Shown in pieces: positions 24,210 to 64,000 of a DNA stretch of 64,000 nt. The notes under the pieces are model-generated. The model was not told where the DNA came from. It did no database searches and was given only the letters and a program-made list of their open reading frames with translations. Source of the stretch: a virus (lineage: Duplodnaviria > Heunggongvirae > Uroviricota > Caudoviricetes); IMG/VR virus record IMGVR_UViG_3300028591_000102, positions 24,579-88,578 of that record; one strand, 5' to 3'. A program made the position numbers and the translations under genes. Within the stretch, counting starts at the first letter, position 1, and each line of letters starts with the position of its first letter.

Positions 24210-24212
24210 AGC

Positions 24213-32750: not shown

Positions 32751-34097
32751 TTGAGAAAACAATATTCATTAGATTATTCAATTGAGCGCGATACAGACCG
32801 CGTCGCCGCAATTTACGAAATCTTAGACGGCTTGGAAAAAGACCCAAATCCAACCGACTTAGAACAAATGGCATCATATATATTATATGGCAAGGATGAG
32901 AATGGGAAAAATTCCATTCAAAGAAACGAAACCACAGACGACGGTCAAAAACGCTACAATACATTCCAACGTGCATCCGAAAAAGTAATGTCATTAGATG
33001 AATTGTTGGAAAATCCACTATTTGACCATGAACAAATAAAGTCGCCGCATAAGCGTGATCCATATAAAAAACCAACCCGTACAATCCATCGTCCAAAGTA
33101 CGACAAGAAAACTGGCGAAATGATAGATCCCGGTGACTCCGATATTCCCGGTATGGTACAACTATGGGACAGTATCGATCGTCTTGATAAATGGATTATG
33201 CAACTAGAAGGTAAGATTCCGCCAGATGAAGATACCCTACTATTTGATGATTCGTACCGCTTATATCGTTTAAAGCACTCATTGGTGGATTTGCGCCGAA
33301 CCCAATACGACCTACTCGACAGCTATAAACCCGTATTACATTTCCAAAATATGGATCATCCAAAAACCCAATTCTATGATTTAAGTTCAGATTCATTCTA
33401 CTGGGTTTCACCAGAATTATGGCAAAAGAAAGTTACTGAAGCTTATTCAAGCCGCGTATCAAAAGATATAAGGGACTATGAAACAAGAATTAATGAGAAG
33501 GGTGAAACAGAAATTAAATGGGTTGTATATAGACATACTTTCGATTGGCGCGACCCCAAACACGTTTTAGCCTTTATTAATAATTATTCGGAATTGAAGT
33601 TGCAAGTATGGGAAAAATTAGATACGTATTCACGCACTCTTTTTTGGGACTTTGATCGTTATCGTAAGCTTGCGGGTATATCTCCAATAAAAAATTTTAT
33701 GCTTGATTGCAAATTGCAAAAGATTCCCTACGAAGATATTATTGAAGAGGTACAACGTATATTTGGAGTAGATTTTCACTTAAATCATTTATCAACAATT
33801 TTTACAAATGAGATTCCACGTAAAATCTCACGAATTGCGGCAAAACTTCAAATGGAATAGGAAACGCCAGAAGAAGAAAAAATTGAATGTTAGAGATGCG
33901 GAAAAAAATTTCCCTTGGATCCTTTGTTTTTTAGTTACAATAGAGCAAGGAAAACTGGCTTTGCACGATATTGTAAAGACTGTGAAAAATTAATTAGAAT
34001 AGAAAAGGGAGTTGTTGCAGAACATGACAAACGTGAAAAAATGTCTCAAGTGCAAATAGGAGAAACCTATAGAAGCCTTCCAAAGCACTCCATCTAA
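32751..34097 (+). CDS. Hypothetical protein with C-terminal Zn finger, TAG=Gln
   Basis: TTG start; reading two TAGs extends the ORF to C[TAG]RC...CKDC and TAA at 34095. Confidence 0.8.
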
Positions 34098-34962
34098 ATT
34101 CTTTCCAGGCGGAAAATGTTATATTTGTACACCATGTCTTGAGACAATGGTGAAGCAGGATAATTTGGGCGAGGTTGACCGTTTGATGAGATGGCTTGAC
34201 CTCCCATTTGACCTCAATAAGTGGACACAGCTTTATGCGCAACACCAAGACCATACGCTTACCGCATACTTCAATTTATTATATGATGACCACTACGAGC
34301 CTTTGCGTTGGGCTGATGAGAATGAAAGATGGCGGCTCGCGCGCGAAGCTGATACCATTAATGATGAAATTAAAGTACTTGGAGAAGCAAAATTAAAATA
34401 GTTAAGAAAAGTTTGGTCAGGTGCTTATAAGCCCGAATAGTTATTATGGTTAGAGAATTTTTATAATAATATTGTTGCTACATAGAATGTATCTACCCCT
34501 ATATTGTAGGAAAAAGCAAGAGACTTCTGTGAATTGCAATTACATATTAAGGAAGGACTACGTAATAACGTTGATGTATCGAAAATGATGAAATAGGCAG
34601 ACGATATTGTAAAGACATATAATTTTACTGCAAATAATGCAAAATCTGCGGCCGATTTCGAATCAGTTGGAGAGTTAATGGTTTATTATGGCAAGAAAGG
34701 ATGGCATCCAAATTGGCATACAGAACCGCAAGATTCCATAGACTTCATGATGGAAAATATTTAGAATTATTTGAAGCGGTTGGTAATAAATGAGGGTAAT
34801 TTTGCAGAACAAGTTGAAGATAAGAAAGCAAGATATAATATGACGGAAAGATTAGAAGAGATAGAAAACGAAAAAGTGGAATTTGACGAAACAGCAGATA
34901 TTGAATATGAAGGTGATGATGATCTAGCCACCGAACTGTAGGGAGGGGGTATAGATGAATGA
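34024..34962 (+). CDS. Zn-finger protein, possible terminase small subunit, TAG=Gln
   Basis: MTNVKKCLKCK[TAG]EKP...CYICTPC; directly upstream of and overlapping the large terminase; function inferred from position. Confidence 0.6.
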
Positions 34963-36736
34963 TTTTGGCGAAATTGTTATGCGAGATGGAATACCAATTG
35001 AAAAAGGTATAGTTCTCACAAAAGAATATTTAGATAATAATTAGGAATTGTTTACTAAATATTTAAATTTTTGGATTAAATATCCAGACTTATTTTTAGA
35101 CGCAATCTAGGACTCAACTGATGCAATTAATTTTCATTTAAAGCCCTTCCAACGTATTGCTTTGCGTGCAAGTATGCGTTACAGATATCATTTTTGGACA
35201 GCGACACGTGCAACATCCAAGTCGTTTACAGCGTATCTTAGTGCGCTAGTTCGTGCCGTATTGCTACCAAACTCAACCCTAATGATTGTATCTGATACAA
35301 AGGGTACAGTTATTAAGATTGCAGAAGCAAAGTTTGAAGAAATTTTTCGCCATTGGCCCTTACTTCGTAATGAATTAAAAACAAGAGCAGATGATGGTAA
35401 AACAGGTATTAAATCTAGTTCTAACTATTATGAGATTTATTTAAAGAATGGAAGCATGATTAGTGTTATTTCTAAAGATACTTCTCGTGGTCTTCGTGCT
35501 ACTGGAGCGGTCCTGGAAGAGTGCGCTCTAATTGATGAAGTGCCATTCAACGAAGTTATTTGGCCGCAAATGAACATTCCAAGAGTTGAAGTTGATGGAA
35601 CTAGAAATCCTGATGAGCCTGCGGCGTCTCAGACTTTTATTACCACTGCGGCAGAACGTACTGTATTTATGTATTAGAAATTAATTGAAATTACTGTTAA
35701 TGCTGTATTGCGCCCGAAAGAATATTTTAGCTGGGGTCTATCATATGAGGTACCCCTACATTATGGGCTTTTAAGTAAAGAGACCCTAATGGACTAGCGT
35801 TATTCTAATACCGTTAGTGAAGATTCATTCGCGCGCGAATCATTATCAATTTGGTCTGGTAACTCAAAAGATGCGTGGTTAGATTCAAAACGTTTAAATC
35901 GACATCGTTCTTTACTTAAATGTGAAAGACAGGCAATTACATTACCACCCGGCGCATTTTATTTAATTGGATGCGACGTTGGCCGTTATAGCGCGAATAC
36001 TGCTATTATGGTAATTAAGGTATTGCCTGGGGACCAGCGTTTTAGGAAAAATGTAGTCTATACAGAAGTTATTAATGGTGCCAACTATATCACAGAATAG
36101 GCACCACGATTAAAGAAATTAATTTAGCTGTATAATCCGCGTGAAATTGTTATTGACGGTAATGGGCCTGGTATTGGATTAATGGATGCTATGGTTCTTC
36201 CTTCAACCGATGCGAAGACTGGCGAATCTTTTCCAGCATATTATACATTTAATGATGAAAATCATTTGCCGCCAGAATTACGTGAGGAAGAAAGTGAACC
36301 GGTTGAAAAATATAACGCTATTATATATGATATAAAAGCAGGCGCATCAAATGAAGATGCAATTAATTCTGCATTTGTATCATCTATAAATAATGGTTCT
36401 ACCTCATTTTTAGCACATGAGCGCGTGGTTAAAGATAAATTAATGAAAACAAAAAAAGGACAAAAAATGACATCTTATGATAGGCGTAAGTTTTTACTTC
36501 CGTATGAAATGACATCTCGATTGATGGATGAACTTAACAACTTGCGGCTTAAGGCTACGGGTGTAGAAAATAAATATAAAGTTGAACGAATCTCAAAAAC
36601 TCTTGAAAAAGATAGATTCTCTGCTTTAGAGTATGCGCTTTATAGAATAAAATATTATGAAGACAAAGAAATTTTAAAGAAACGAAGAAAAAAGGTAATT
36701 TAGTATGCTTTCTTCAGTCCTAAAAATAGGGGGTGA
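34955..36736 (+). CDS. terL: Terminase large subunit, TAG=Gln
   Basis: ATPase motifs TATRATSKSF and VLEECA; RuvC-like IGCDVGR, IVIDGNGPG, KDRFSALEY in a single frame. Confidence 0.9.
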
Positions 36737-36741
36737 GAATT

Positions 36742-38289
36742 TTGGAAAATCAGAATAAAAATAGATTTCAAAATTTTTAGTCTATGGCTAAAAGATATTA
36801 GATTACACACGTGCCAATGGACAGCCGCCAATATATTGGACGCTGGGGCAACTTTAGAGGAAATAGTGTTGCTAGACGAGAATTTACTGTTGAAGAAATA
36901 GAAGAAATTATTCGTTCTGGAAGTGTTGAAGAATTAAGAGAATTATCTAGATATTTCTATAGAACAAATAGTTTATATCGTATGAATATAGATATTCTTG
37001 CAAGTCTTCCTCTATATTATACCATGGTCACCCCTATTTTCGAGAATGGTAAAGGTTCTTAGACACAAATTATTAAAGCATTTTATAATGCTTGTATGTT
37101 TGTGGAAAAACTTGATGTAAGAAACACATTATTTAGAATTACTAAAGAATGGCTTAAATAGGGGTTATATTGCGGTATTCTTCAAGAAAAGGATGGAAAA
37201 GTGGTATTAGTAGATTTACCTATCAGTCATACACGAACTCGTTTTAAAGATTTTAATAATTTAAATGTATTGGAATTTAATCTTACATATTTTAATTTTA
37301 AATATTCTGACGAAACAGAGCGTGAATAGGCGGTTCTTACTTTTCCAGAAATTGTGCAGAAAGCATGGCGCGATTGGAAAAAGGGTAGAATGGAAGATTC
37401 GTGGATTATGATTCCTGCGGCAAGTGGCGGTGTTAGCTTTTGTTTTGCTGAAGATCAATCTCCAATCCTTATTGCAGCTTTACCATCATTGGTTCATTTA
37501 AAAGATGCTGAAGGACGTGAAGAGCGGCGTGATGAAAATGAATTATATAAATTATTAATTCAACAAATGCCAATTGATAGTAATGGTGAATTAGTATTTG
37601 AATTAGAAGAAATTGAACAAATTCATGCAGGAGTGGCAGAAATGTTGCAGTAGCTTGATACAGTTGATGTATTAACTACAGTAGGCGAAGCCAGATTAGA
37701 AAATTTATAGGATTCTTCTGCTGCGACTCAATCTGCTAATCGTATTGAAAAATATGATAAGTAGGCTTGGGATAATCTTGGCCGTAGTTCATTATTATTT
37801 AATGCAAACAATAGTTCATCACTAGCTTATGCAATTAAAAAAGACGAAAGTCTAATGAAGGGATATTTAACCGCATATGATACTTGGATTAGATTCTTAA
37901 TTAATCAAAGATTTGCAAGAACAGGCCTTACATTTGACTTTGAAATTTTGCCTATTACTATTTTTAATCAAAAAGAATATCATGCAGATGCATTATCCGG
38001 TGCTCAATTTGGATATTCTAAAATGAAGGCGGGAGTAGCTTTAGGAATAAAACAAATTAATCAATTAAGTTTAATTACATTTGAAAATGAATTTTTAAAG
38101 ATGCATGAAAAAATGATTCCTCTTATGTCATCATATACACAAGGTGGAAATGAAAAAAATAATTCTACAAAAGAAAAAAGTAGTAATAGTGGCGGCGGAA
38201 AAAACATAACTAATACAGGAGGTCGTCCAGAGCTTCCCGATGAAGAAAAATCAGAAAAAACCCGCGCGAATATTGATTCAATGGGTTAA
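36742..38289 (+). CDS. Portal protein, TAG=Gln
   Basis: ~515 aa in one frame (ORF fragments 36811, 37354, 37855 share it); lies between terL and scaffold; C-terminal GGRPELPDEEKS motif. Confidence 0.8.
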
Positions 38290-38301
38290 GGAGGCATATG
38301 T

Positions 38302-39609
38302 ATGAGTAAAAGAACAATTCCAGTTTACTTTGATAATGCAATTATCATGTCTCCCGTAGAACAAATAGCAGAGGGAAGTGGCTTAAACCGTTTAAGAGTT
38401 GGGGTATTTACAAAATACGGCAATCGCAATGGTTCCTATATTACTGATGCTGTTGCAGAACGTTTAATTGAAAGCGCGACAAAGGGAGATACACCAGTCG
38501 TTGGATTTTTTGATCCAGAGTCTAAGGGCTGGGCAGGTCATACTGGACCTACATTAGCCAATGGTTATGGTTATGTAGAAAATTTTGAAGGGTGGGAACC
38601 TTTCCAAGATAGCGATGGAATTACACGCGATTATGCAGTATTTTCCGTTGTATTATTCACAAGATATTTTGATGAGGCCAATTTTGTAATTGGTCAAAAT
38701 CAAAGTATGGAATTAGATATTAACTCAATCGAGGGCGATTGGGCTGATATAGATGGTATTGAGTATTTCGTTTATACTCAAGCTGATATTATGGGTTTAT
38801 GTATTATTGGTAATCATGAACCTTGCTTCTCGGTATCTGCTTTCTTTGAGAAGAAAGATAGCGAGTATGCAACACAATATGAGAAGTTCTCTTCACTTCT
38901 AGCTGATGTTAAGGCGCGAGTAGAAGAGGCTGAAAAGAATCTAGAAGGAGGGGAACATCAGATGGAAAATGAACTCAATCCCGAAGTAAACACTGAGACC
39001 ACTCCTGAGCAGGAACCTGTTCAAGAGCCTGCTAACCAGGAGCCAGAAGCTCCAGCTGATCCTCAAGAGGAACCAGCGGCAGAACCTGCAGCAGAGCCTG
39101 CTGCTGAACCTGTCCAAGAACCTGAAGAAAATTCTGAAGGTCAGGAGCCAGAGCAAGAAGAAGAGCAAGAAGAGCCAGAAGATGCGGCCGCAAACGCAGA
39201 TTTCGAAGCACAGATTGCTGAACTTCAAACTCAATTAAATGAACTAACTACTAATTATGAAAACGCACAAAACCGTATTGCAGAGTTAGAAGCCCAGATT
39301 ACATCCGCGTCTGAGACTGAAACCGCACTACGTAATGAGATTGCTACTTATGAAGCAGAGCGTTCTCGTCTAGAAGTAGAACAAAGAAATGCACTCGTTG
39401 CACGCTATGAGAATGAATTAGATACAGAGTCTCTCGCAGAGGTGCGTGAGCATCTAAATGAATATTCTCTAGAAGCATTAGAGAGCAAATTGGCAATTAT
39501 GTATGCCAATAAACACATGGCTGGCAGTGCTAACAATGATGTAGTTCCACTACCAGAACCCGTTGTTGATGAATTCGCGTTATTTATGCAAAAATATCGC
39601 AAGAACTAA
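38302..39609 (+). CDS. Prohead protease/scaffold protein
   Basis: N-terminal globular domain (QSMEL, GLCIIG..EPCF), acidic Pro-rich linker, coiled-coil C-terminus; no TAG. Confidence 0.7.
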   Translation: MSKRTIPVYFDNAIIMSPVEQIAEGSGLNRLRVGVFTKYGNRNGSYITDAVAERLIESATKGDTPVVGFFDPESKGWAGHTGPTLANGYGYVENFEGWEPFQDSDGITRDYAVFSVVLFTRYFDEANFVIGQNQSMELDINSIEGDWADIDGIEYFVYTQADIMGLCIIGNHEPCFSVSAFFEKKDSEYATQYEKFSSLLADVKARVEEAEKNLEGGEHQMENELNPEVNTETTPEQEPVQEPANQEPEAPADPQEEPAAEPAAEPAAEPVQEPEENSEGQEPEQEEEQEEPEDAAANADFEAQIAELQTQLNELTTNYENAQNRIAELEAQITSASETETALRNEIATYEAERSRLEVEQRNALVARYENELDTESLAEVREHLNEYSLEALESKLAIMYANKHMAGSANNDVVPLPEPVVDEFALFMQKYRKN

Positions 39610-39622
39610 GGAGGAATAAATC

Positions 39623-40264
39623 ATGGGTAAATATGCAAGATTTCCTATTACCAATGTTGTGGGCGATCTAGTTGCACAGCATCGTGATCCCGATGAAAAG
39701 CTCTATGCCAGCCTCGAACTAAACCAAGTAGCTTTCCCAAAGACTGGTATGGTTGTTTCTCAGACTCCACTTGGAACTGCTTTTACGAAGGCTGCTCCTT
39801 GTGAGAATGGTATGTGGGTCGTAGGCGATAAGGCCGCTGGTGTGATTAATCCACCCGCCAATGCAACCGACGCTCCAATTGGTATTGTTTATACTACAGA
39901 AAAAGAATATGATCGTGAACATTATGGTCTACAACGCTTCGGCCGCAAGATCGCTGGGGATTATCCTCGTGTTGGTCTATTCGGCATTGGCGATACAGTA
40001 ACTACTAACTGCTTACAGTATAGTACTGATAATTTCGCTAACGAAGCAGCATTATTAAATGCTTTAAAGGCAGATTTAACCAAGGCTGCTACTGCTCTAT
40101 ATGTAGTTCCTGGCGTAAATTCTGATTTAGCTGATGCTTCTGCAAAGGCTGTTCCAGAAATCGTTAAGAGCGCTCCACAGAGTGGTATTTATGGCCGTAT
40201 TACTAAATTCTATACGATTCCTAACGGCGGCATCGGCGTTAAGTATCAGATTATTAGAGTATAA
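39623..40264 (+). CDS. Capsid decoration/minor head protein
   Basis: Between scaffold and major capsid gene; ELNQV, CENGM motifs. Confidence 0.6.
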   Translation: MGKYARFPITNVVGDLVAQHRDPDEKLYASLELNQVAFPKTGMVVSQTPLGTAFTKAAPCENGMWVVGDKAAGVINPPANATDAPIGIVYTTEKEYDREHYGLQRFGRKIAGDYPRVGLFGIGDTVTTNCLQYSTDNFANEAALLNALKADLTKAATALYVVPGVNSDLADASAKAVPEIVKSAPQSGIYGRITKFYTIPNGGIGVKYQIIRV

Positions 40265-40279
40265 TTGGAGGTGCGACTT

Positions 40280-41377
40280 ATGAATAGACTACAAGCTTTA
40301 ATGAACGGCGTATTCGGTCGTGCCGTTCCTGCGGAATTTTCTGCAGAAGAATACGATTATGAAGCCGCTCTCCGTGATGAATTAGCGAAGCTAATGACTA
40401 AGGATGGCGTACACTTCAATCGTCACGTCTTCAATCGTAATAAGGAAGACGTATTTGAACTCTTAGAAGAGAATCTATAGGAAGTTTTACCACAGAACGT
40501 AAAGAGTGCTCTCGATATGTTCGTTGAGGTAAAGAATTATGCTCAGGGCACTCGCCCAGAGTTCCGTGTAATTCGCGGAAAGCAACGCGGCAAGCAGTTC
40601 GTTACTCGTGCTACCGAATCTGGTAACTATGAGACCTTCCGTCTTGATCGTGACCGTTTTGACGTATATATCCAGGCTATCGGTGGCGCTGGATACGTAG
40701 ACTTCGAGCGTTATCTCGATGGTCTTGAGTCCATGACCGATATCTACGAAGTAATCCAAGAGGGTATCGTAGATCGTCTATTCGAAATGGTACAGGAATG
40801 CTTACTAGCTTCTTGGAATGCTGCTGGTCGTCCAGTACGCAACAAGGTTGCCGCTAATAGCTTCAATCCTGTAGCTATGAAGAAACTCTGCAACACCGTT
40901 GCACCATATGGCAGCCCAATCATTTACTGCACTCCTGAGTTTGCAGCTGAAATGGTTAATGCTATTATCTATAACAACACCACCAAGATTTCTGATGTTG
41001 ATATGCAGGAAGTTCGCGATCGTGGTTACATCGGCAAGTTCCAGGGCGTTCCAGTTGTTGTAATGCCTCAGTCCTTCACCGATGAGAAGAATGAGAAATT
41101 ACTCTTCAACCCATCTTTCGCATACGTACTACCAGCTGGCAAGGAAAAGATTATCAAGATGGCTTTCGAAGGCTCTCCTTACTTCCGTGAGTGGGATGAC
41201 CATGAGGGCGATAATCAGTTCACCTTACAGGGCTACGTAAAAGTTGGTGTTGGTCTATTCACTACTCCTAATTATTGGGGTATCTATTACAATAGTGCTC
41301 TCGATGATGGTTCTGGCTGGGAAGAATATAACCAGGCTCTAGTTCCTACCTTCGATGATGGTACTGCTAATTCTTAA
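40280..41377 (+). CDS. Major capsid protein (HK97-like), one in-frame TAG
   Basis: Fragments 40265 and 40517 share a frame, joined across TAG 40478; 365 aa; GYIGKFQGVPVVVMPQSF motif. Confidence 0.85.
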
Positions 41378-41386
41378 TGAATTGTA

Positions 41387-41410
41387 AGGGGAGGGAGTAA
41401 TCCCTCCCCT
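41387..41410 (+). terminator. Hairpin terminator after the capsid gene
   Basis: GGGGAGGGA-GTAA-TCCCTCCCC. Confidence 0.65.
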
Positions 41411-41438
41411 ATTTGGAGTTAAAAGGAGGATTTTATCT

Positions 41439-41876
41439 ATGATTAAAATTACAAATGTGAGCACATCTTTAGTATCATTATATGTGCCAGAAATTAAATT
41501 AAATAGGGACCTAGTTCCTGGGCGTACAATTACTGTTACTCCCGAAGAATATGAAGAGTTAACTTTTGATGCCGGTTTTAATGCTCTTGCGCGCGGTCAT
41601 TATATTAAGATTGAAGGCGTAGAAGAGAATAAGCAGGTTGAAGTTATTAAGAATGTAGTCGATGCAAAGACTATTGAGAAGATGCTATTAAAGGGCGATG
41701 TTACTGCTTTTGCTAAGTTCATTCCACACGCTACTGAAGCAGAGAAAGACAGCGCTGTAACATTAGCCGTTGAACATAAAATTACAAATCCGGGTATTAA
41801 CGCCTTAATTAAGAAATACTGCGATGTGGATGTTATTAATGCTATTAGCATGAAGCATGATGCAGAAGAGAAGTGA
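41439..41876 (+). CDS. Hypothetical virion-associated protein
   Basis: 145 aa, RBS AGGAGG. Confidence 0.75.
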   Translation: MIKITNVSTSLVSLYVPEIKLNRDLVPGRTITVTPEEYEELTFDAGFNALARGHYIKIEGVEENKQVEVIKNVVDAKTIEKMLLKGDVTAFAKFIPHATEAEKDSAVTLAVEHKITNPGINALIKKYCDVDVINAISMKHDAEEK

Positions 41877-41882
41877 TGAGAT

Positions 41883-42353
41883 ATGGCAACACCCTTCTTA
41901 AAGGTTTATGACGCGTTTTTGGCGCGAATCACAGCCGATGAATGGACGTTAGAAGAAGAGTTAGCTATTGTCGAAAGAGACTGGCAAGAGCTTCTTAAAA
42001 TGGCTATTGCTCGGTTTAAATATCCTCGTATAAGTCTGGATTTTGAAGAATGCGATTGTGATGGACCCGCACATTACTATGCATTTAAAGAAGATTTAAC
42101 TAATGATGAAATACAAATGCTTGCGCTTTATATGAAGCATGAGTGGATTAAGCGTTGTATTGCTAGTTGGGAAAATATTCGATAGCTGTATGTAGATTCA
42201 GACTTTAGTTAGGCAAATCATTTAGATAAATTAAATAAATTATAGACTGAAGTAGCATTAGAGGTTCGAAAGAATGAAGGAGTGTATGATAGATCGCGTG
42301 GTCACAGTCCCGCGGAAATATTCAGAAGACTCGCTGGAAAGAACCATCATTGA
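41883..42353 (+). CDS. Putative head-tail adaptor, TAG=Gln
   Basis: MATPFLKVYDAFL...; continues through 3 TAGs to TGA 42351. Confidence 0.65.
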
Positions 42354-42618
42354 TGAGACTTTCGAAGGGTATAAAAATAAATTAAAGGGTCGTTTATTTG
42401 GTTTATTGTGTGAGAGAGAAAAGAATGGGGAATGGGAAAAGTTTCTTGATTCTATCATTTTAGAACTTCGCGGACTCGGCGCAAATTCCATTAACTGGTG
42501 GCCGCTGATGGGAAAACTCGGAGTTTTACGTTATCTTTCTTATGAGTATTTTAGAAAAACTATTTTTGAATGCATGAATTTAATTGGTAAATTGGAGATT
42601 CCAGATGAATTATCTTGA
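42274..42618 (+). CDS. Hypothetical neck-region protein (start uncertain, possibly ~42349)
   Basis: ORF track; overlaps the previous gene. Confidence 0.55.
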   Translation: MKECMIDRVVTVPRKYSEDSLERTIIDETFEGYKNKLKGRLFGLLCEREKNGEWEKFLDSIILELRGLGANSINWWPLMGKLGVLRYLSYEYFRKTIFECMNLIGKLEIPDELS

Positions 42619-43801
42619 TGTATATTTTTCTAGAATAAATCATGGTGGCGAGACTACTGCTGAACGTATTCGTGATGGTAGTATTCGTTCTTTTGAAAGA
42701 TGGATAGCAGAGTCTCCTCATACAGTAGAGGATTTGTCGGTTGAGCGAGGGATATATTTTAGCGGGATTTTATTAACACATAAGGATAAAGAATATCAAA
42801 AGTTTTTAAAATTACATGTGGCTAATGATATTCCAATTAAAGTTGGAGATATTATGAATTGGCGACAAGATGATGGTTCAGTAGAAAAATGGATTTTACT
42901 TTCTGAACATAAGAAAGTTAACGGGCCTTATAAAACTTTTGAAATATTAAAATGTAATTATTTGGTTAAATGGATAGATGCAAATGGACATTTATAGAGT
43001 TCATGGTCTTATGTATTAAGTTCTACCGACGATAAAATTAAAGGTAATTTTAGAACTTGGCATAATCTTATTTCTCCTTAGCCGAATAAGTATGCAGAAT
43101 TAGTTATGCCACGAATTATAATAGATCGTGGCACTAATTTCATTATTGAAGATGAAAGCTGGCAATTAGTTGAATATGATCATACCAGCGTTGATGGTAT
43201 TATTTATTTATCTGTAACAGAAAATAAAGTTAATTTAATTTATGATGATTTAAAGAATGATATTGCTGATACAGATAAATTAGCAAGATATCGTCTAGAT
43301 TTACCTCAAGTTGATTAGATATTTAAAGTTGGTGATACAATTAATCCGGTATATACTTTAATGAAAGATGGAAAAATATATGATGGCGCGGTTACCTGGA
43401 GTTCTTCTGATAAAAAAATTGTAAAAGTTATCGATGGTCAATTAACTGCAATTTCTGAGGGTACAGTAACAATTACCGCTTCATTAGAGGAATATCCAGA
43501 GCTATAGCAATCAATGGAGATTACAATAGGCTCATAGGAACAAGAATTTTCTGCTTACATTAAAGGCAATGATTCTATTAAATTAGATAGATATTGCGAT
43601 TATGAATTAGTTGGAACCACATCTATAGATGGGGTAGAATATAGATTAGAGACAACTGAATTGGCTATCATTTCAGATATCTCTGATAATAAATGTATAA
43701 TACATGCTAATAAAAAGAATAAATTAGGTTCTATTACTTTAGTCGCGTCTTATAATGGAACAGATTATACTAAAGAAATATAGATAGTACCATTATGGTG
43801 A
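42605..43801 (+). CDS. Head-closure-like protein with Ig-like (Big_2) domain, TAG=Gln
   Basis: Single frame; VTWSSSDKKIVKVIDGQLTAISEGTVTITA is a Big_2-type motif. Confidence 0.7.
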
Positions 43802-43811
43802 GGTGAGTTAA

Positions 43812-44315
43812 ATGGCGGATAAAACTCCTACATAGCGCCGCTTTGCTGTATTGGGCGAAAACGTATTTAATGTTGCTAATAAATTAATGTAGAATTAGCG
43901 TCTTTGTCGCCTTCTTAAATATCAAGTACGAGATCCTTTTAATAAAGAAAGACCAGATGTGGATGGTGTAGATTTAATGAATAAATAGATTCTCATCATT
44001 CCAAAAATATTTGATGATAGCACTGAGAAAATGTCTTATGTAACTGCAATTTTTACAGATTTTGTTACTAATGCTCTTAATCCAGATTTTAAATTAACAC
44101 GTATTCGTTTTGACATAGCATGCCCTTATGATGAATGGGTGTTAGATGAAAGTTCTTTACGTCCCTATCTTATTATGTAGGAAATTGATACGATGTTTAA
44201 TTAGGCTAAGATGTCTGGCATTGGAACATTACAGTTTGTACGAGCAGATGCATTAACATTAACACCATGGATTGGTGGCTTTTCAATGCTTTATTCTATT
44301 AATGAATTTAACTGA
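43812..44315 (+). CDS. Putative tail terminator/completion protein, TAG=Gln
   Basis: Absent from the ORF track; MADKTPT[TAG]RRFAVLGEN...RLCRLLKY...RPYLIM[TAG]EID. Confidence 0.65.
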
Positions 44316-45078
44316 TTCTGATACTTTAAAATTTTTAAAAGGAACTCCTGTATTGTTTGAAGATATATGCGCTGTTTATCCAGTTACATTGGGTGAAATA
44401 GTAGATGAGGGGTACGACAGGTTTGAATAGTATTTAGGTATTCTTACTATGACAAAGCCCACTACAATACATGATAGTGATTAGGAATTAACTTAGTTAA
44501 TGTCAAAATTAACTGATTTTTAGTATATATTGATGTTGGCTATGTTAGACAAATAGGTTAATGCTGTATTAAAATAGGCATTGTATTTTTTTACGCACGA
44601 CGATGCAATTTTTTCATTGGATCCGCCGCAAATTATATTAGGTCCACTCCAAGAAAAACACATTTTAACCGAAGAGAAATTCTATGATTTTTAGAGACTT
44701 TTACGTAGGATGTATTTTTTAGAGGTTGAGGGTGAAGAAATTATTATTTATGAAGATGATTCACCCGCGGTACGGCGTTTAAAAGAGCAAATGCGTGCAA
44801 ATCGTGAGAAAGTTAGAAGAGCTAAAGCTAGGCAAAATAAAAAAGATGGCTCAGATTTAAAACTTTCAGATTTAATTGGTAGTATGACTATCAATGATTG
44901 TGGCCTAAATATAGTAAATATTTGGGGTGTGACATATTATGCTTTTCATGACCAACTAAAGCGGATGGGATGGCGTGATTAGTTTAATATAAATTAGAAG
45001 GCTGCTCTTGCGGGAGCAAAACTTAAAAAATCAGAACTTAAGCATTGGATGCGGTCCATTGCGAGTTCAGACAAGTGA
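44302..45078 (+). CDS. Hypothetical tail-region protein, TAG=Gln
   Basis: One frame includes fragment 44710; TGA at 45076. Confidence 0.7.
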
Positions 45079-45101
45079 AAAATCAAAGGAGGTAAACTCA
45101 C

Positions 45102-46064
45102 ATGGCTGTAAATATTTTTGATAAATATGGCATTAAAGAGGTTGCTAATGTTTATTTTGAAGCATTAGATAGCGATGCAAAAGCTGGCGTTTATGCTGGT
45201 GATATCGTTCTATTCCTCGATACTTTAAAGGTTTCCACCATTGAAACCACTGCTGAAAATACCGCTGCACAGGGCGGCTGGGGCAATCCTAAACTAATCC
45301 AGTGGGACTATGGTAAGGAAATTAATATTACTCTAGAAGATGCTCTAATGTCTCTAGAGTCCTTACGTTTCATGCTTGGCGGTGCTATTAAGCAGAGCAA
45401 AGCAACTGAAAAGGTATTAGTTCGTTACAACGAAGAAGTCGTTTGTATCGCGGGCGGCGTAGTTCCAAAGCCAAAGGATCATATTACTGGTAGAATCTTA
45501 ACTCCAAAGCCAAGTACCACTCATCCTGTTAAGTTAATCAATTTAACTACTGGTGCTCGTACTCAGCTAACTAGTGGTGAATTCACCGGTAATAAGAAGA
45601 TTAACTTCAAGAATCCAGCTATGCTCGGTGACGACGAAGTAGCTACCGCTGAAGGCGACCACATTCGTATTTTCTGGGAAGAAGAAGTAGGCGCAGAAGG
45701 TACTGATGCTGCTAATGCAGTTGAAGTTACTATCTCTCCTGATACCTTCCCTGGAACCTATCGTGTTGTTGGCGATACCTTTATGCGTTCTGAGAAGACT
45801 GGTAAGGATGAACCATTCCAGTTTGTTATCAATAAGGCAAAGGTACAGAGCAACGTTACTATCACTCTACAAGCAGAAGGCGATCCTTCTACTTTCGAGA
45901 TGACTCTAAACGTACTACGCTCTACTAATGAGAAGGGCGAAAACGAAATGATGAAACTCATTCGTTATAGCTTTGAATCCGATGAAGAATCCGAAGAGGA
46001 TGATGACATTGGTTCTCTTGGTACTGCTAGCTCTGCTTCTGGTGGCGCAACCGGTACTCCATAA
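45102..46064 (+). CDS. Major tail (tube) protein
   Basis: 320 aa, no TAG; GGWGNPKLIQWDYGKE, TITLQAEGDPSTFEMTL. Confidence 0.75.
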   Translation: MAVNIFDKYGIKEVANVYFEALDSDAKAGVYAGDIVLFLDTLKVSTIETTAENTAAQGGWGNPKLIQWDYGKEINITLEDALMSLESLRFMLGGAIKQSKATEKVLVRYNEEVVCIAGGVVPKPKDHITGRILTPKPSTTHPVKLINLTTGARTQLTSGEFTGNKKINFKNPAMLGDDEVATAEGDHIRIFWEEEVGAEGTDAANAVEVTISPDTFPGTYRVVGDTFMRSEKTGKDEPFQFVINKAKVQSNVTITLQAEGDPSTFEMTLNVLRSTNEKGENEMMKLIRYSFESDEESEEDDDIGSLGTASSASGGATGTP

Positions 46065-46136: not shown

Positions 46137-47021
46137 ATGATTGACCAATATTTTGGACATAAAGAGCTATATGAAGTGGCTCTTAAAGCAAAAGTTCCTA
46201 TGAAATTTGGCAATCGTTATATTGAAGAGGGCGAACCTGTTCTCTATTTTGAAAATGTAAATATGTCTACTTTAACTGAGCGTAATTCTGCAATATTTGC
46301 GCGTGGTGGGTGGGCAAATTAGCCTAGAGTTACTTGGGAGGACAGGTCTGAAGTGGTCTTTTAGATGACAGAAGGTGTTATGTCCTCTGTGGGTATGGGC
46401 ATTCTTTTAAGTGCAAATGTTACTAGTCCAGAATAGGAGTAGCCTATTGCTGTTAATAAGCGTGAAGGCCCATATGAAATTATTGAATTAACAATTGACA
46501 ATAAAAAGGAACAAGGATTTTATATTTAGCATAAACCTATTATGTATCCGAAGAAAAAAGTGTTTATTATGGAGTATAGTAGAAAGGCTGCTTAGCAAAA
46601 GGTTTATGGTAAATTAATTGAAAGAGATACACCATTTGGAATAAAATATTTTATTAGTGTGTATCAAGATAAGGATTTGACAATTCCTGTGGATATTAAT
46701 AAAGAGTATGTAGTAGATTATTACTATGAGTATGGAGATGAAGCGTTAATCTATACAATATAGAAAGAGCGTTTCAATGGATTATTCACTTTAGAAGCAA
46801 AATTTTATTCTAAGGATGAAAATGAGGGCATAAATTATACAAACATATTATATATGCCTAAAGTTAGAGTAGTAAGTAATATAAACTTACGCTTGGGAGA
46901 AAGGGCAGACCCAACAGTATCCACGTTTAATATAATAGGACTCCCGGAAAACGTGGGGTCAAGCAAGGATTTAATAGTTGAGATGACAAGATTAAGTTAG
47001 GATATAGATACTGACGTTTAA
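46137..47021 (+). CDS. Tail-tube-related protein, TAG=Gln
   Basis: ARGGWAN[TAG]PRVTWED parallels AQGGWGNPKLIQWD of the tail tube; TAA at 47019. Confidence 0.65.
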
Positions 47022-56000: not shown

Positions 56001-59000
56001 ACAGTGGAGATATGTCTAAGATTAGTGCGGCATATAATAATTTAAAAGAAACAGTTGTTGCAATTTAGCATACTGCGGCGGGAGATACTGATCTTACAGA
56101 CTTTGCCGCAAACTTTCTTACTTCATTTGATGACATTTCTACTGCGGTTAGGGATTATGAAGAAAAAATTGAACAAGAAGCAAGAAATAGTAAAGAATTA
56201 ATTAATGCTTATTTTAGAACTACTTATAAAGATAGTGAATTTATTCAAGATAAAAGTGGTTTATTAGATATTATTGGAAGTTCTTTTGATGCTAAATATT
56301 AGGATGCATATAAAAAAGCAAAAGAAAAAGGCGAATCATACAGTCAAGATGACTTTGTATCTCAGTATTTTGCGGACATGGAAACTGCGGCAACTTACGC
56401 AGAAACGTTCTGGCTTAACCTTTCTACTATGGGTTCATCTGTAGTAGATTAGTTTTAGTCTATGATTAAAGATTCTTCCAAATATCGTAAGGAAATGTTT
56501 GCATAGAAATTTGGTAAAATTGATGGTTTTGATAAGATTGAGCAATATATAATAGAAAAAGCTGATGAAAGAATTAAAAATATTAATGATAATTTAATTG
56601 AATATTTTAAATAGTCTGATAAGAATAGAAAAAACATCTCTTCTGATAATATTTTATAGTTTACTGCGAATCGTGTTGCGGCTGAAGGTCGTAAAGAAAA
56701 TGTTCAAACTTATGCGGAAGCACAACTTCTTAAAGATATATATTCATAGAGCGAAGATTTAATTAGTAAAGGTTATATTGAAGAATATACTCAATATTCT
56801 GACGCGGCGTATAATTTATTTGATTAGATGTTAGGTTTACCAGCGCAGGCATACAGCTTAATGTTTGATTATTACGGTAAATATGGAATGAAATCTAAAT
56901 CAGATATTAATAGTATGATTGATGCTATTAAAGGAGATACAAATATAGAAAATGATGCATTAATTCCTTTATTAGAACTTATCCGTGATAATATGCGTGA
57001 TAATGTTGCTCTTGCGATGGAAGCTTATAGGGATACGCTAGCAGAAGAGTGGAAAGATAAGAGTAAATTATTTAAGAGTTTAACTTCTGGTATTGATATA
57101 GGTGACATTGATACTATAATTGCTGAAGCTAAGGGTATGGGCATCGAAGATATCGGTGTTGATGATTTTGTTGCCAGCGGCGATAAATTAGTTTTAGATG
57201 CAGATAAGGCTTTAGAATATTATAAAAAATATTTTGAAAAATAGACGGATAAAATTAATGAATTTAGAGATAAAATAGATGTCGATTATAATGGCAATAA
57301 ATTAAAGACGGATGAAAACGGTCAATTAGATTTAGATTGGATAGATGACGCAGATGAATTAACATAGCAACAATATGATTATTTTGAAACTACACTTGGC
57401 GTAAAAGATCTTTAGACTTTCTATACTAAAAATGAAAAAACTGGCAAATATAAATGGACCGGTAGTAAACACGCGGACTTTTTAAAAAATGTTCAAGAAG
57501 CTTGGGATACTCGTCATGAAGTTTTAGGTTTATTATATAAATCAATTGAACAAGAAGAAATTGAAATTGTCAAAGATATATAGTGGAAACAAGGAGATTA
57601 TTCTTCATTAAAAGATTATATCGGTGATAAATCTATACTTGATATAATGAAGATGAGTAATAAAAATATTAGTAATGACTATAAAAAATCTCCAGATGTT
57701 AAAAATGCGGTTGACCGAGCTCGTAAAGCCACTTAGAATCTTATTAATGATTTAATATCAAAGCCACTTAGTGAAATTGATTTTTCTGAGTATCAAGATC
57801 TTCCCGCTGAAATTTTAACAGAAATTAAACAATTAGGTCATAATGGTGTTTATGCTTTTGTTAAAAAATATACCGAATACTTAGGACTTGGCGTTGATGC
57901 TACAAATGATTTAATACTTGAGGCTTATAATAAAAAGAATGAAAAAACTTCTAATAGTTTAATAAAAGATTTGTCATTCTTTGATTTTAATACTGTTGAA
58001 TTAACTGCCGAATAGTTAAAGAATTTAGCAAATACATTTGATGTTGATTTTGGACAATTGTTGAGTGTATTTGGCGGTAGTTTTGATGCGATCACCGGTA
58101 AAGCAAAAGTAGATATTGCCACGCTCATGTCAATGGGTATTGATTTGACCAGCGTCGATGGATTTATGGAAACCGTTTAGGAATCCATTAATAATCTATT
58201 TAAAAATTTAGCAACTTATATATCAAATGCTATTAAAGGTAACTTAAGTGCAGAAAATGCAAAAGAACTATAGAATTTTGCTACAGAACGTGGCTTGGGT
58301 AAATTAAACTTTATATAGACTGCTGATGGGTTGAAATTAGCAAATGATGAGGCCATTAGATTGGTTAAATCATTGCAACAGGTTAATTCATTATAGGGTT
58401 AGGTTGTTTTTAAAGAATTGGCAGAAAATTTAATTAAAACAGACGATAGATTTAAATCTGTTGAATCAACTGCTGGTTATATTAAAAAAATCAAAGATGA
58501 AATGAATGACTTGAATAAAGAATCCGATTAGTTTATAATAGCACAAGAAGAATATGCAAAATTACTTAAAGAAGAATAGCCGCATATTGAAGCATTTGAT
58601 AAAGTAAATGGTAATGCTCATTTATATAATAGAAATTGGATTAATAACGCTGATGGTACATACTCAACTATTTTAGGTACCGAATATACAGATTGGGAAA
58701 TTGGTGAATAGGAAGCTCATATTCTGATGACACCTATTCCAGAATGGGCGGAAATCGAAGATGATATTCTTCCAATGGAAGAACTTGATAGTTATATTGA
58801 TGCATTAATGGAAAAGAATCCTATTGATGTTAATGCATTATTAGAGTTAGATGCAAAAGGTTTAGAATTGAATGGTAAACATCTTTCTAATATGATTATT
58901 GATATTAAAGATGCTACTGAAACCTCTGCAGATGAATTTCATAATGAAGCAATAGAACTGCATGAATGGAGTAATGCATGGGAATCGATTCGTTAGGGCG

Positions 59001-62000
59001 TTGAAGTACCAGACAATAGTGAACGTTTAGCCGCGCTAGAGGAAGAATTGTCTCTTGCTCAATAGATTCAAGCAATTCGCGGAACAAGAGAAGATAGCAC
59101 GTTTAAATTCATGGAATAGAATATTCCAGCTGGTCAAAATAATCCATTAAATTACTGGGAAAATTGGCGTAAAGCATATGATGCAATTAATGAATCAGTT
59201 AACGGTGATAAAAATAATAAAGGATACATGGGTTATCAAGACTTCTATAATATTATTACCGAAATGGGTAACCTTTCCGATATGATGGGAGGAAAGGGGA
59301 TTAAAATAGGTGAAAACTTAGAAGTCACTTCAGAAAAGGTAGCTTCATTAATTGAAAAAGCCGGTCGAAATATGGAAGTCGCCGCGGATGGATCTTTAAA
59401 AATTAATCTTGAAGGAATTGGAGTGGATTTTGCTTCTAGTGCGGATAGCATGGCAGCAGACGTAGATACTGGTATCAAGGAGATGGCGTAGTCTCAAATT
59501 GATATGCTTGATGGATTAATAGCGTTACTTGAAACAATAGTGGCGATGGAAGAATTAAGTGATATCGATATAGAGGGCGATGGAATTGATATTGGTAATA
59601 TTCTATCTGTTAATTGGGATTCAGAGGGAAACCCAGTCGATGATGCTGAATTTACTGAAGGTTACAATAGATGGCGTCAAAGTATTATTGAACAAATTAC
59701 AGAATATAACGAAGACGGCAGTAAAAATGCTAAATTTAATAAAGATTTAGCAGATGCAATGGGTAAAATTAAGCTTGATGGCCATATATTATCTGATATT
59801 ATTTCTTGGGATGCCAATGACCTCGCAAATATGGGTAAAGAATTTAACGAATCTTACGCTAAGCTTATGGATGCAATGGTCAAGGCTGCTGTATCAGGAG
59901 ACTATGATTTAGATAATATTGCAGAGAGTGTACAATAGATTCTAGCACAATCGGGAGTTACTGATATTACTATTGATGTTGGAGATACAACACTGGTATT
60001 AACTGGTGGAGAAATTCGTCAAGTTAATTGGAACCTTGCTGATTCTTAGGATGCTTTGGCAAGAGCTATCTAGGATGGTATGGCCAAGGATAAACAAGAG
60101 GCTAAAGATTATATTACTGAGAAAATGGCCGCATATGATAAGGGTGAGAAACTCGATGAGCGTGACTTATCATATGTAATGGAAGTAAATCATCATATTA
60201 AATTTGTTAATGGTCAGACTGTAGTTACTTGGAATGGTAAAGAATATGTTGATGGTTCAGACGGTTTTGCACAGGCTATTGCTGCGAATCGTCTATTAGA
60301 CGCCGGTATAGAATTAGAAGAAAATTGGAAGCCTGAGGATCATACAGGAGAAACTACTGTTACTACGACTACGATAATTGGTAGTAAAGAGGATATAAAG
60401 GTAGAATCAGATGGATATAGTATTACTTTCTATAGTCCTGATGGAACTGGTTACGCTTCTAAAGATGCATTATTACATGGTGAATATTAGAAATATTTTG
60501 ATGAGCATAATGGTAAATCAGATTCTGAAGGTCATTAGTTAAAGGTTTAGACTTATGAAGAATGGTTATATGCAAATTATAATATTCGTACAAAGATTTT
60601 AACTAAGTTTACTGATGAGAATGGAGAAGAAGTAGATTTATCTCAGGATGTTGGGACACGCGCAGAAGTAAATAGATTATTAAATACATCCAATGATGCA
60701 ATTGTTAAGATGTTTGAAGAGGGCGCGGATGCTTAGGGTAACTATCATCTTACATTAGATAATGGTGTATAGATTGATTTTAGTGGAGACGATGTTGCGG
60801 TTAATGGAACACTAGATCCTGAATTAGTAAAAGCTAAATTAAGGGAAGCGTTGGGACTTGATTCTGCATTAGCTGATACTATTACAACTGGAATTACGAA
60901 TGCCATTCCAGGCATTATTTCCTCTTTAACCGAAGTTGATGCGGGTCCATTAGAAAAGGTTGCGACCGCTTTAGCAAATATATTATCAAATATTTAGGCA
61001 TTAGCTGGAGCAGATTATACATCTATAGCGAATGGTTTAAATTCGCTAAATGAACCGGGTGAAGTTACTGTTGAAACCTCTACTGGAGATAATACAGTTG
61101 AAATTGATACAACCGCAATTGAACAAGCTGGAAATACAGTTTAGGAAACCGGCGGGAAATTTACTACCGCGGGTGAAAAAGCTGCTGAAGCCGGTACAAA
61201 GGCGGAAGAATTTGCAACTGGAACAAATGTTGCAGGAACCAATGCCAGCAGTGCTTAGACTTAGATTGAAGGTTTAAGTAATGCTGAATTAAATGCTGGA
61301 ACAAATGCTCTTATGTCTACTCCTTCAGTTGAGTCCTTGTCTGTTTCTACTGGAAATATGGGAGCGTCCGCCGCGAGTGCGGCATCTCCGGTATCAACCG
61401 CAGCTTCTAATATTGAAAGATTGGCTTCAGCAATCCGTAGTATTCCTGCAAGCACAACACATTCTGTTACTATTAGCGTAAGAGAATCTAGTGCAAAAGG
61501 TAATGTTCAAATCGTTAGTGGTAAAACTGGAAAATTATTCTCATTTGCTAAAGGTAATGCTTTTGCTGGAGGAAAATCAACGCTAATGGGGGAACTCGGA
61601 CCAGAATTAGTAGTATCTAATGGCGGATATTATATTGTTGGTCAAAATGGTTCTGAAATGGTTGATTTGCCAAAAGATGCAATAGTTTTTAATCATTAGT
61701 AGACTGAGTAGTTATTAACAAAAGGCAAAGCCGGAAGAGGTAAACCATTTACTAGTGAAGATAATGCAATTTCTTTTGCTAAAGGTAGTTTTAGTGGTGG
61801 CCCAGCAATGGCTTCTGCTAGTGCTGCGCTAGCCGCATTAAAACAATTACGTGCAATGTGGGAGTCTTTATAGAACGCCTCTGTTAAAAATCTCGCCGGT
61901 AAAGGCGGCGGCGGTGGTGGCGGTGGCGGCGGCAACAAGGAAGTTCAAGCCGCATGGATTGCCCAAGTAGAACGTTGGTATAACTTAATGCAGAAGATTG

Positions 62001-64000
62001 CATAGCTTGAAAAAGATATTACATATGAAGAGACGTTGCGTAGCAAATTATCTTCTGATATTAATAAAAATGGTAAAGCTTATTATGCAAGTTAGAAACG
62101 TTCACTTAAAGCCATTGAAGACTAGATGATTGCACAAGAGACGCTTGTTATTAGTCAAGAAGAATATTTTAAACAACGTCGTGATTAGTTAAATAATAGT
62201 ATATTTAATAAGTTCTATACATTTGATGAAAATGGATAGCTTAAGTATTCTAATTATAAAGATCCCGAGGGTGGATATAGCTTCTTAGCTGATCTAATGT
62301 CATAGGATGATTTTGGTAAAGCAAAATATACTGCAGAAGAGCAATATAATAAATTGCTATAGGCTGGCTTTGGAGCATATATGCAATATAATTCCAATGG
62401 TGAAAAAATTGAAGCTGATGATGAAGGCAACTTTGATTATTCTGCCGCGGTTGAAGCTTTCTGGAATTAGGTCGATAGTCAGAGAGAAGAAATGCAATCT
62501 CTTCATGATGATATTGAGGACGGTAAAAATAGCTTACTTGAGCTTGAGAGTGCACGTAATGAAATATTACAAGAAATTCGCGATAATCAAATGAAAGTTG
62601 AATAGAACGTTTTGAAAGCAGTAGAAGCTTAGAGACAAAGAGCTATTGATAATTTATCAGAAGAGCGAGAAGCATTACAAGAATCTAGTTAGAAGTATAT
62701 TCAAGGTTTAAATGATGCATTAAGTAAAGAACGCTCAATGTATGAAGACTAGTAGAATGAACAAGAATTACAAAAATTGTACCGTTAGCTTGATATTTTA
62801 AAACGTTCGGGAGGCTCCGGTAGTCAAATTAGAAGTCTTGAAAGTGAAATAAAGACTAAAGAACAAGAATCATATTTTAATCAATGGCAAGAACAAATTG
62901 ATGCTATCCAAGAAGCATCTGACTTAGAATTAGAACGTTTGGATACATAGATTGACTTAATGACATAGACATTAGAATATGAGAAGGAACATGGTTTATT
63001 GTGGGCTGATGTTTATACTGTAATGTCCTAGTCTCCAGAAGAAATTATGGCCTTTATTACTGCACATGATGAAGAATATTGGGGTAACTCTCCATTACAA
63101 AATGATGAAAACTTCCGTCAGGCAATGTTTGAAGCAGATTAGTGGGGAGAGTTTCAGAGAGATGCCGCGGCGGCTACTGCAGATTAGATGGCTGCTAATG
63201 CATCTATCGAATCTAATATTGCTAGTGCAGTATATGGTTAGGATAGTGGCGCTTATCAATGGAATATCTTTAATCAAGCTATGACTGATTTATATGGTAA
63301 TCAATGGAGTAATATTGCCGATACTGTAAAGGATCAATTTTTACAGCAATATTCTAAAACAGGCGATATTAATGCTGCATCAGAAGCTATTACTGGAGGA
63401 ATCAATTCTTTAAGTGAAACATTGGTTGGAATGATGGAATCATTTAATAATCAAGGAGTCGAGGAAGTTCCTTCCGTCGGTGGCGCTGGAGATAGTGATG
63501 ATAGCGGTAGTAGTGATAGTGGTAGCAAGACTGGAAGTCCTAAAGGCGGTGGTGGAAAAACTACTTGGATGGATAAGGCTTGGAAGTCTGCTCAGACCGC
63601 AGCCGCATCTGCTACTGCTACTGCGGCAGATGCAGTCAAAACAGTGGCTAAGGCTTTAAATGTTGCTGGAGTAGTATCGGCCGCTTCTGTAAAAACTGGA
63701 GCATATAAACCACATACACCTAAAAAACTTAGTGTTACCGGTAATGCTCTAGCTGAAGGCACATTAATGGGTGAGCTTGGTCCAGAACTATATGTTTCTG
63801 GTGGTTAGACCCATCTGGCTGGTCGTTATGGCGCAGAAATGGTTGACTTGCCAAATGATGCTATTGTATTTAATCATTTATAGACATAGCAATTATTAAA
63901 GGCTGGTTATTCTACTGGTAGGGGTAAATCTATAATTAATGATTATATTTCTGCGGGAATGCACAAGACTCATCGTTCGCTTGCATATGGTATAGGTAAT
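47078..64000 (+). CDS. Giant tail tape measure protein (>5,641 aa, partial), TAG=Gln
   Basis: All plus-strand protein-like fragments from 48734 to 63281 share one frame; manual scan found no in-frame TAA/TGA; TP901-type TMP core at ~48300-49100 (ELDTVM..ISIVTDMS...ESATNIGSALKSIAARY). Confidence 0.88.

Follow-up and report, generated by a model that had tools for sequence, protein, structure and literature searches.

Evidence for TAG as a glutamine codon in the late genes of a large SPbeta-like siphovirus, and for its avoidance in early and replication genes

Introduction

In the code-15 gut phages described so far, among them the crAss-like, Lak and 'gemstone' clades, TAG is read as glutamine (Gln, Q) in structural and late genes while the replication genes keep the standard code; lysis and homing-endonuclease genes are recoded as well, and a suppressor tRNA encoded by the phage has been proposed as the trigger (10.1101/2021.08.26.457843; PMC9523058). 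Borges et al. have also remarked that suppressor tRNAs are often missed by tRNA finders (10.1101/2021.08.26.457843). Here we analyse the use of TAG in a stretch of 64,000 nucleotides, called the window below, which occupies positions 24579-88578 of one viral contig, 152,578 bp long (IMG/VR record IMGVR_UViG_3300028591_000102). An earlier note, written from the letters of the window, had proposed that TAG is reassigned to glutamine in late and replication genes and avoided in an array of early genes. We give a probability of roughly 0.85 to the reading that TAG stands for glutamine in most virion and other late genes and is absent from early and replication genes, and that a phage tRNA(CUA) would thereby delay the late proteins. 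Features are given in window coordinates unless marked as genome positions.

Like the crAss-like, Lak and 'gemstone' phages, the phage analysed here has recoded structural and late genes, a recoded homing endonuclease and standard-code replication genes. It differs from them in its SPbeta-like structural module and its probable Bacillota host, in that no release factor or synthetase gene was found in five complete relatives, and in its TAG-free abundant virion proteins, a point that we did not find in the two papers cited above. Another described system is phAss-1 of the proposed Phassvirus (Babkin et al. 2023, PMC10607447; 'Caudoviricetes code 15 clade' at NCBI), a large siphovirus of the human gut with a genome of 136 kb, in which the genes for the large terminase (TerL), portal, tape measure and fibres are broken by TAG, glutamine was inferred from TerL alignments, and tRNA-Sup(CTA) genes are accompanied by a long tape measure and by no synthetase (PMC10607447). 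The same four kinds of gene are broken by TAG here, but the two phages are distant, with 33% identity in TerL and 26% in the portal, and the tape measure has 3,149 residues there and 5,755 here. No tRNA was found in the one phAss-1 locus that we examined.

The SPbeta-like, EF1/H1, 949/AM, E3 and PBC2-type siphoviruses share with our phage homologous TerL, portal, YonB capsid and YomU tube proteins, a long tape measure, and a common layout in which small early genes, arranged as a leftward array, diverge from a rightward late operon. Those phages use the standard code, however, and the identities are only 23-36%. In E. coli supE-type suppression, a tRNA-Gln with a CUA anticodon inserts glutamine at UAG in competition with release factor 1 (RF1). 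The tRNA carried by the relatives of our phage differs from it in an extra arm that shows a normal Gln anticodon, and UAG is used here hundreds of times by design.

Results

TAG interrupts conserved phage genes that are otherwise intact

Under table 11 the plus strand between 32.7 and 64 kb is a scatter of short open reading frames (ORFs), and with TAG as glutamine it becomes a compact plus-strand operon. Over the whole 152.6-kb contig, coverage by ORFs of at least 100 amino acids rises from 0.57 under table 11 to 0.89 when TAG is sense, and reaches only 0.63 in the control in which TGA is made sense. TAA and TGA still terminate, and conserved phage genes are intact only if TAG is read through. 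The terminase, the portal, the neck and tail genes, the fibre cassettes and the tape measure are all made whole in this way, and the PHROG profiles for TerL (phrog_2), the portal (phrog_2739) and several virion families align across TAG codons. The tape-measure frame (47078-64345) contains 171 TAG and zero TAA or TGA in 5,755 codons, against 229 and 720 TAA/TGA in the two other frames; half of all its Gln-like codons are TAG, and its orthologue in the complete relative G001 has 5,227 amino acids and 144 TAG. Gene calling under codes 11 and 15 thus bears out the claim in the earlier note that TerL, portal, neck and tape-measure genes are intact only with TAG as sense, although several of the late genes need no TAG or one (the capsid gene, one).

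Broken ORFs under table 11 are all that could be cited for the view that the in-frame TAGs arise from errors in sequencing or assembly, or are signs of pseudogenes in decay. We consider this view to have a negligible probability, because the recoded genes contain 423 in-frame TAG and not one in-frame TAA or TGA, and because the pattern is repeated in 80 independent contigs. TAG is a sense codon in the recoded genes, and chance is excluded.

CheckV puts the completeness of the contig, which is linear and without a terminal repeat, at 79%. Its TerL and portal gave only distant matches among phages (tblastn, 23-36% identity), namely to the large Bacillota siphoviruses Enterococcus EF1, H1 and VRE9, Geobacillus E3, Lactococcus 949 and AM, Bacillus PBC2 and Thrax, and Brevibacillus Sundance, and also to the TAG-recoded phAss-1. 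Much closer are at least 80 contigs in IMG/VR with TerL 67-88% identical; five of these (G001-G005) are complete genomes of 179-190 kb. The part of G001 between about 22 and 165 kb is collinear with our contig, and the arc missing from the latter is exactly where G001-G005 have 18-28 tRNA genes. The structural genes follow the SPbeta-like order, with homologues of TerL, the portal, the YonB-type capsid and the YomU-type tube (tblastn and look-alike scores from an atlas, the latter being leads and not alignments). The Rfam motifs cow-rumen-3 (RF03083), cow-rumen-4 (RF02948) and ROOL (RF03087) occur in the tRNA arrays of the relatives, and a rumen source would fit these 'cow-rumen' motifs. The phage is a large siphovirus of a rumen-associated clade, of about 180-190 kb if complete (the probability given in the Introduction is for the joint explanation), and its host is probably a member of the Bacillota, judging from the phage relatives, the Shine-Dalgarno (SD) sites and the extended -10 promoters.

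Evidence for glutamine at TAG positions

In a codon-exchange test that drew on 80 relatives, 14 late genes were each aligned at the codon level with orthologues from as many as 76 of them. TAG codons of the window align in these relatives to CAA 576 times, to TAG 515 times, to GAA 213 times, to CAG 195 times and to AAA 151 times, a ranking that matches that of true CAA codons and differs from what TAT, TGG, TTA and TCA show. About ten sites swap only between Q and TAG, for example TerL 304 (Q in 53 relatives, TAG in 23), portal 325 (52 and 18) and site 157 of the phrog_3314 protein (57 and 9). Q comes out well ahead in a likelihood comparison, at a log-likelihood of -2.43 versus -3.32 for glutamate. 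When the standard-code phages E3 and H1 are used for comparison, Q is found at 21% of TAG sites and at 23% of true CAA/CAG sites, over a background of 4.2%, so that the residues of homologues at TAG positions, a check that the earlier note had proposed, show a Gln-type profile.

Alignment of the paralogous fibre cassettes within the window pairs MW[TAG]RIA with MWQRIE, RI[TAG]D with PIQG, and TG[TAG]Q with TGQQ. The first two pairs are those on which the earlier note had based the identity of the residue, and we see both of them in the alignment; the zinc motif that it described as completed across TAG was likewise found, as C-[TAG]-R-C ... C-K-D-C past the first TAG of the gene at 32751-34097. 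On these comparisons of sequences, the decoding of TAG as glutamine is strongly supported.

TAG among early, replication and late genes

TAG usage was measured as TAG/(TAG+CAA+CAG) per gene class. The share is 0.49 in the late operon once its abundant proteins are set aside, 0.55 in the fibre cassettes and the helicase-like gene, 0.33 in a resolvase/GIY-YIG block and 0.28 in the tail-fibre block upstream of the window. Against these stand the confident early genes with 0, the abundant virion proteins with 0.02, and the replication block with 0.006 (2 TAG in 9,840 codons); the contrasts between classes have Fisher P values from 1e-13 to 1e-66, and the same mosaic is present in the complete relative G001. 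The replication block lies outside the window and encodes a PolIII-alpha-like polymerase of 1,320 amino acids, DnaB, primase, RecJ, Sak4, topoisomerase II, NrdD and ligase. The bias towards late genes put forward in the earlier note therefore stands, but its inclusion of replication genes does not: it had rested on one recoded gene (7386-9038) with a sub-threshold DEAD-box match, and this 'helicase' as well as the fibre cassettes (4513-7219) fall outside the interval 32751-64000 to which the proposal had been assigned.

The rare TAGs of the TAG-free blocks (genome 112446-114041, DnaB; genome 146134-146772) stand 4 and 11 codons before a TAA or TGA. They may be genuine TAG stops with a backup stop, for which a short tail would be the sole cost under suppression.

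Genes were called by strand block with an SD-aware choice of starts, replacing greedy longest-ORF calls under code 15 that had placed antisense plus-strand ORFs in the early region. The features of the array are:

13243..32357, minus strand: early array of about 40-43 small genes with SD sites, without in-frame TAG, all stops TAA or TGA
17166-19794, minus strand: two unusually large genes of the array, one of 510 amino acids without a family match, the other of 324 amino acids with an AAA_5 (dynein-related/MoxR-like) ATPase domain

The early genes are preceded by GAAAGGAG-type SD sites, and their starts are mostly ATG. The trinucleotide content of the strand itself gives TAG a share of 12.7% among the three stop triplets, and none of the approximately 40 early genes ends in TAG (P about 0.004 by simple arithmetic). 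Because TAG is avoided both as sense and as stop, these genes are readable under code 11 or code 15, and the statement in the earlier note that the early zone has no need of TAG and stops at TAA or TGA holds for the 40 or so minus-strand ORFs of the array. Four TAG-bearing early ORFs (15983-16126, 23605-23937, 26329-26454 and 28358-28705) were rejected as spurious, since they have no SD site or overlap better TAG-free ORFs; in a further ORF of uncertain status, 30882-31034, a TAG stands three codons ahead of the TGA.

Of the sigma-70-type promoters on the strand of the array, 13 are perfect and 11 near-perfect, and promoter-like sites total 99 versus 47 +/- 6 expected. In the late region at 33-53 kb, sigma-70-type sites are not above expectation by the same kind of count, a difference that supports an early, host-polymerase-driven status for the array. 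About 10 nucleotides upstream of the -35 box, most of the perfect early promoters (13036-30488, minus strand) have the palindrome CTTAGATGTTAAACATCTAAG, which is not present at the promoters at 21865, 16066 and 14652.

The late operon is laid out as follows:

32700..32729, plus strand: perfect promoter TTGACA-18-TATAAT with TG, before the first plus-strand gene, without the palindrome of the early array
32751..34097, plus strand: putative sigma-like/helix-turn-helix (HTH) regulator with a C-terminal CxxC...CxxC zinc ribbon, 2 TAG (codons 369 and 380)
34012..34962, plus strand: phrog_3314 protein, 8 TAG, start uncertain; sites 157 and 250 are only Q or TAG in 66 relatives
34883..36736, plus strand: large terminase (phrog_2), 7-9 TAG, the first two possibly upstream of the true start
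36733..38289, plus strand: portal, 8 TAG (phrog_2739, E=2e-68, residues 42-516)
38302..40264, plus strand: two head-module genes of 435 and 213 amino acids, 0 TAG (gene calls)
40280..41377, plus strand: YonB-like major capsid protein, 1 TAG at codon 66 (atlas PF27364 YonB, 0.98; phrog_4088, residues 21-341)
41439-41876, plus strand: neck/tail-completion gene, 0 TAG (gene calls)
41883-42353, plus strand: neck/tail-completion gene, 3 TAG (gene calls)
42584-43801, plus strand: neck/tail-completion gene with an immunoglobulin domain, 6 TAG (gene calls)
43812-44315, plus strand: neck/tail-completion gene, 6 TAG (gene calls)
44272-45078, plus strand: neck/tail-completion gene, 9 TAG (gene calls)
45102..46064, plus strand: YomU-like tail tube protein, 0 TAG (atlas PF27173 YomU_Tube, 0.98; phrog_2729)
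46137..47021, plus strand: tail gene of 294 amino acids, 8 TAG (gene calls)
47078..64345, plus strand, beyond the window end at 64000: tape measure protein, with PhageMin_Tail at 440-654 and nuclease-like PBECR5 at 1164-1255

By their TAG counts, five of these genes on the plus strand are nearly free of TAG (38302-39609, 39623-40264, the capsid gene at 40280-41377, 41439-41876 and the tube gene at 45102-46064), with 1 TAG in 1,478 codons and P=4e-13 versus the rest of the operon; the single capsid TAG, at codon 66, faces E, D or Q in 46 relatives. Since abundant late proteins avoid TAG, expression level, and not timing alone, shapes its placement. This observation brings in the main rival to a timing device, according to which CAG, once there was a suppressor, has drifted to TAG wherever an AT-rich genome tolerates it, and TAG has been purged only from very early or heavily translated genes, so that the contrast between early and late genes would be a by-product. 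The capsid gene with its 1 TAG, the tube gene with 0 and the three others with 0 do avoid TAG as strongly as the early genes. It is also in keeping with drift that TAG positions are poorly conserved among the relatives and swap freely with CAA and CAG, that the TAG load of TerL orthologues varies from 0 to 14 per gene, and that some non-structural genes are recoded. Drift offers less of an account of the early and replication genes, which avoid TAG as a stop too, as the count in the early array shows. A further point against it is a mild excess of TAG at the beginning of genes: over the first 60 codons, 23 recoded genes have 80 Gln-like codons together, of which 50 are TAG versus 39.7 expected (permutation P=0.003), a weak trend that wrong start codons could inflate. 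We regard drift as the sole cause as rather unlikely; it is compatible with a switch, and may hold alongside it, instead of excluding it.

On the minus strand at the left of the window there are further recoded genes:

4513..7219, minus strand: four paralogous fibre-tip cassettes and one fibre gene, 1-4 TAG each (paralogue alignment)
7386..9038, minus strand: helicase-like gene of 550 amino acids, with a higher density of TAG than any other in the window (21 TAG; sub-threshold match to PF00270, E=1e-5)

The fibre-tip cassettes stand in tandem and are 45-59% identical, with a common N-terminus, a C-terminal NMPPYL(T/A)VY-W motif and variable middles; from this arrangement they look like alternative receptor-binding tips. 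Sequence searches of Pfam, PHROGs, NCBIfam and PDB gave no name to the helicase-like protein of 550 amino acids or to another of 938 amino acids with 18 TAG.

The suppressor tRNA of the relatives

A tRNA with a CUA anticodon is the first gene of the tRNA array in four of the five complete relatives (G001-G004). It lies about 40 nucleotides downstream of a conserved ORF of about 113 amino acids, with a TTGACT-17-TATAAT promoter upstream, and the order of the unit is a sigma-70-like promoter, the cow-rumen-4 motif (a hairpin and U-run, terminator-like), an SD site, the Lys/Glu/Ala-rich ORF, a small hairpin and the tRNA(CUA). The loci are:

L113, 2678-3243: suppressor unit, with tRNA(CUA) at 3158-3243
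L116, 3056-3631: suppressor unit, with tRNA(CUA) at 3547-3631
L115, about 3050-3616: suppressor unit, with tRNA(CUA) at 3529-3616
L111, 5310-5900, minus strand: suppressor unit, with tRNA(CUA) at c5318-5410

The orphan motif cow-rumen-4 hereby gains a genomic context, as the predicted leader of a suppressor unit.

The tRNA(CUA) genes are 85-95 nucleotides long and have a normal CU-CUA-AA anticodon loop. Their long extra arm and their G73 are features of class II tRNA-Ser, and a few long CUA tRNAs of other phages (L141, L204 and L217) look Ser-derived, which makes serine the obvious candidate if TAG were decoded as a residue other than glutamine. We think this most improbable. TAG is hardly ever opposite codons for serine, leucine, tyrosine or tryptophan in the alignments, where its exchange profile is that of glutamine, and the acceptor stems of these tRNAs resemble those of the phages' own tRNA-Gln (in G001 both genes begin with AGCCCCT and carry G73). 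Moreover, the extra arm itself consists of a covarying stem of 2-5 bp that closes a loop of 7 nucleotides, and this loop reads as a Gln anticodon loop. A Gln anticodon is present there in 20 of 25 distinct long tRNA(CUA) (CUG in 18 and UUG in 2, loci L139-L218 included) versus 3 of 61 class II controls. Such an arm may supply the glutamine identity for charging by host enzymes; a literature search found no paper on this design.

The window and the rest of the contig were also examined for the other factors that the earlier note had suggested looking for. No match to the release factor family PF00472 and no GlnRS gene was found in the contig, and neither PF00472 nor the Gln/Glu-tRNA synthetase family PF00749 gave a match in the five complete relatives, so that charging of the tRNA and competition with RF1 must rely on host factors.

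The first gene of the late operon, the putative regulator at 32751-34097, matches phrog_5767 'sigma factor' (E=6e-11). Its predicted fold (predicted local distance difference test, pLDDT, 74.7) has no significant match in PDB and weak sigma region 4/HTH matches in AFDB, and because the fold matches are weak the sigma assignment rests mainly on phrog_5767. Its 2 TAG are located just before and inside the zinc ribbon, a stretch that is coding in 61 relatives, and the orthologues have up to 12 TAG distributed along the gene from codon 12 on. Without suppression, the protein of our phage would lose only its zinc ribbon. This placement of TAG would be compatible with control of a late regulator at the level of translation, with the sigma identity weakly supported. 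The sequence 'TTAATAT' upstream of the promoter of this gene is similar to the promoter found in the suppressor unit of the relatives.

A more specific proposal can be made, in which the code switch would be a defined unit, composed of the promoter, the attenuator-like cow-rumen-4 RNA, the Lys/Glu/Ala ORF and the long tRNA(CUA), that gates the TAG-laden sigma-like regulator. The suppressor unit was seen only in the relatives, and we offer this proposal as a speculative and unlikely one.

Discussion

The events that we envisage for this phage would begin with the translation, by the ribosomes of the host at entry, of the code-neutral early and replication genes. Messages bearing TAG would at that stage give truncated products, because RF1 of the host terminates at TAG. 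The phage tRNA(CUA), charged with glutamine by host enzymes, would then accumulate and out-compete RF1, so that full-length late proteins could be made; judging from the relatives, its gene would be placed in the 21% of the genome that is missing from the contig. Suppression of UAG would probably be slower or leakier than normal decoding, and the capsid, tail tube and scaffold-like proteins would for this reason be kept nearly free of TAG. The sparing of the highest-copy proteins itself suggests that suppression is costly or slow. Tails measure about 0.15 nm per residue of their tape measure, and on that basis the 5,755 codons of the tape-measure gene, which to our knowledge is among the longest known, would correspond to a tail about 0.8 micrometre long, provided that the entire protein acts as a ruler. 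A tail set by such a protein would need very many tube subunits. The layout of the genes fits a timing switch, as far as an inference from their order and coding can go.

Several observations weigh against this explanation. ARAGORN, the Rfam tRNA model at E<=1 and a scan for a stem-closed YU-CUA-R loop with a T-loop all detected no tRNA, either in the window or elsewhere in the contig; the earlier note had seen no CUA suppressor in the window, and the rest of the contig has none either. The decoder is accordingly known by inference from the relatives, and its absence can probably be attributed to the truncation of the contig at the arc of the tRNA array. Among the complete relatives, G005 showed no tRNA(CUA) though its TerL has 3 TAG. 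Three of the four tRNA(CUA) of the other relatives are below the Rfam tRNA threshold, and that just one of four is above it agrees with the point made by Borges et al. that many suppressors go undetected. The recoded genes are also not all 'late', since they include those for the helicase-like protein, PhoH, a RuvC-like resolvase, a GIY-YIG nuclease and the sigma-like regulator with its perfect host-type promoter, and timing alone is no full explanation because several late genes avoid TAG.

The lack of a decoder in the contig is also what could be adduced for a host that itself reads UAG as glutamine, in which case the phage would merely share the code of its host and there would be no switch. 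We know of no code-15 bacterium that has been described. The relatives carry their own tRNA(CUA), and in about 130 early, replication and small genes TAG is avoided as a stop as well as a sense codon, for which a uniform code 15 would give no reason. The predicted hosts of recoded phages, furthermore, use the standard code (Borges, 10.1101/2021.08.26.457843). A shared host code is thus very improbable, and delay of the late proteins by a phage tRNA(CUA) remains the explanation that we prefer.

The phenomenon is already established for code-15 phages, and the present case mainly confirms and refines it. The refinements are two, that abundant proteins are spared TAG and that early genes avoid TAG even as a stop. 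For annotation, the case concerns a large clade, with at least 80 related contigs in IMG/VR and related protein clusters in the hundreds, in which calls under table 11 shatter the late genes. It also brings a lineage that is SPbeta-like and of Bacillota type into the group of code-15 phages. If the suppressor unit gates the sigma-like regulator with which the late operon begins, the recoding of translation would control late transcription. The genome offers two clean internal contrasts, one between early or replication genes and late genes and the other between abundant and rare late proteins, and both together suggest that suppression of UAG is delayed and costly.

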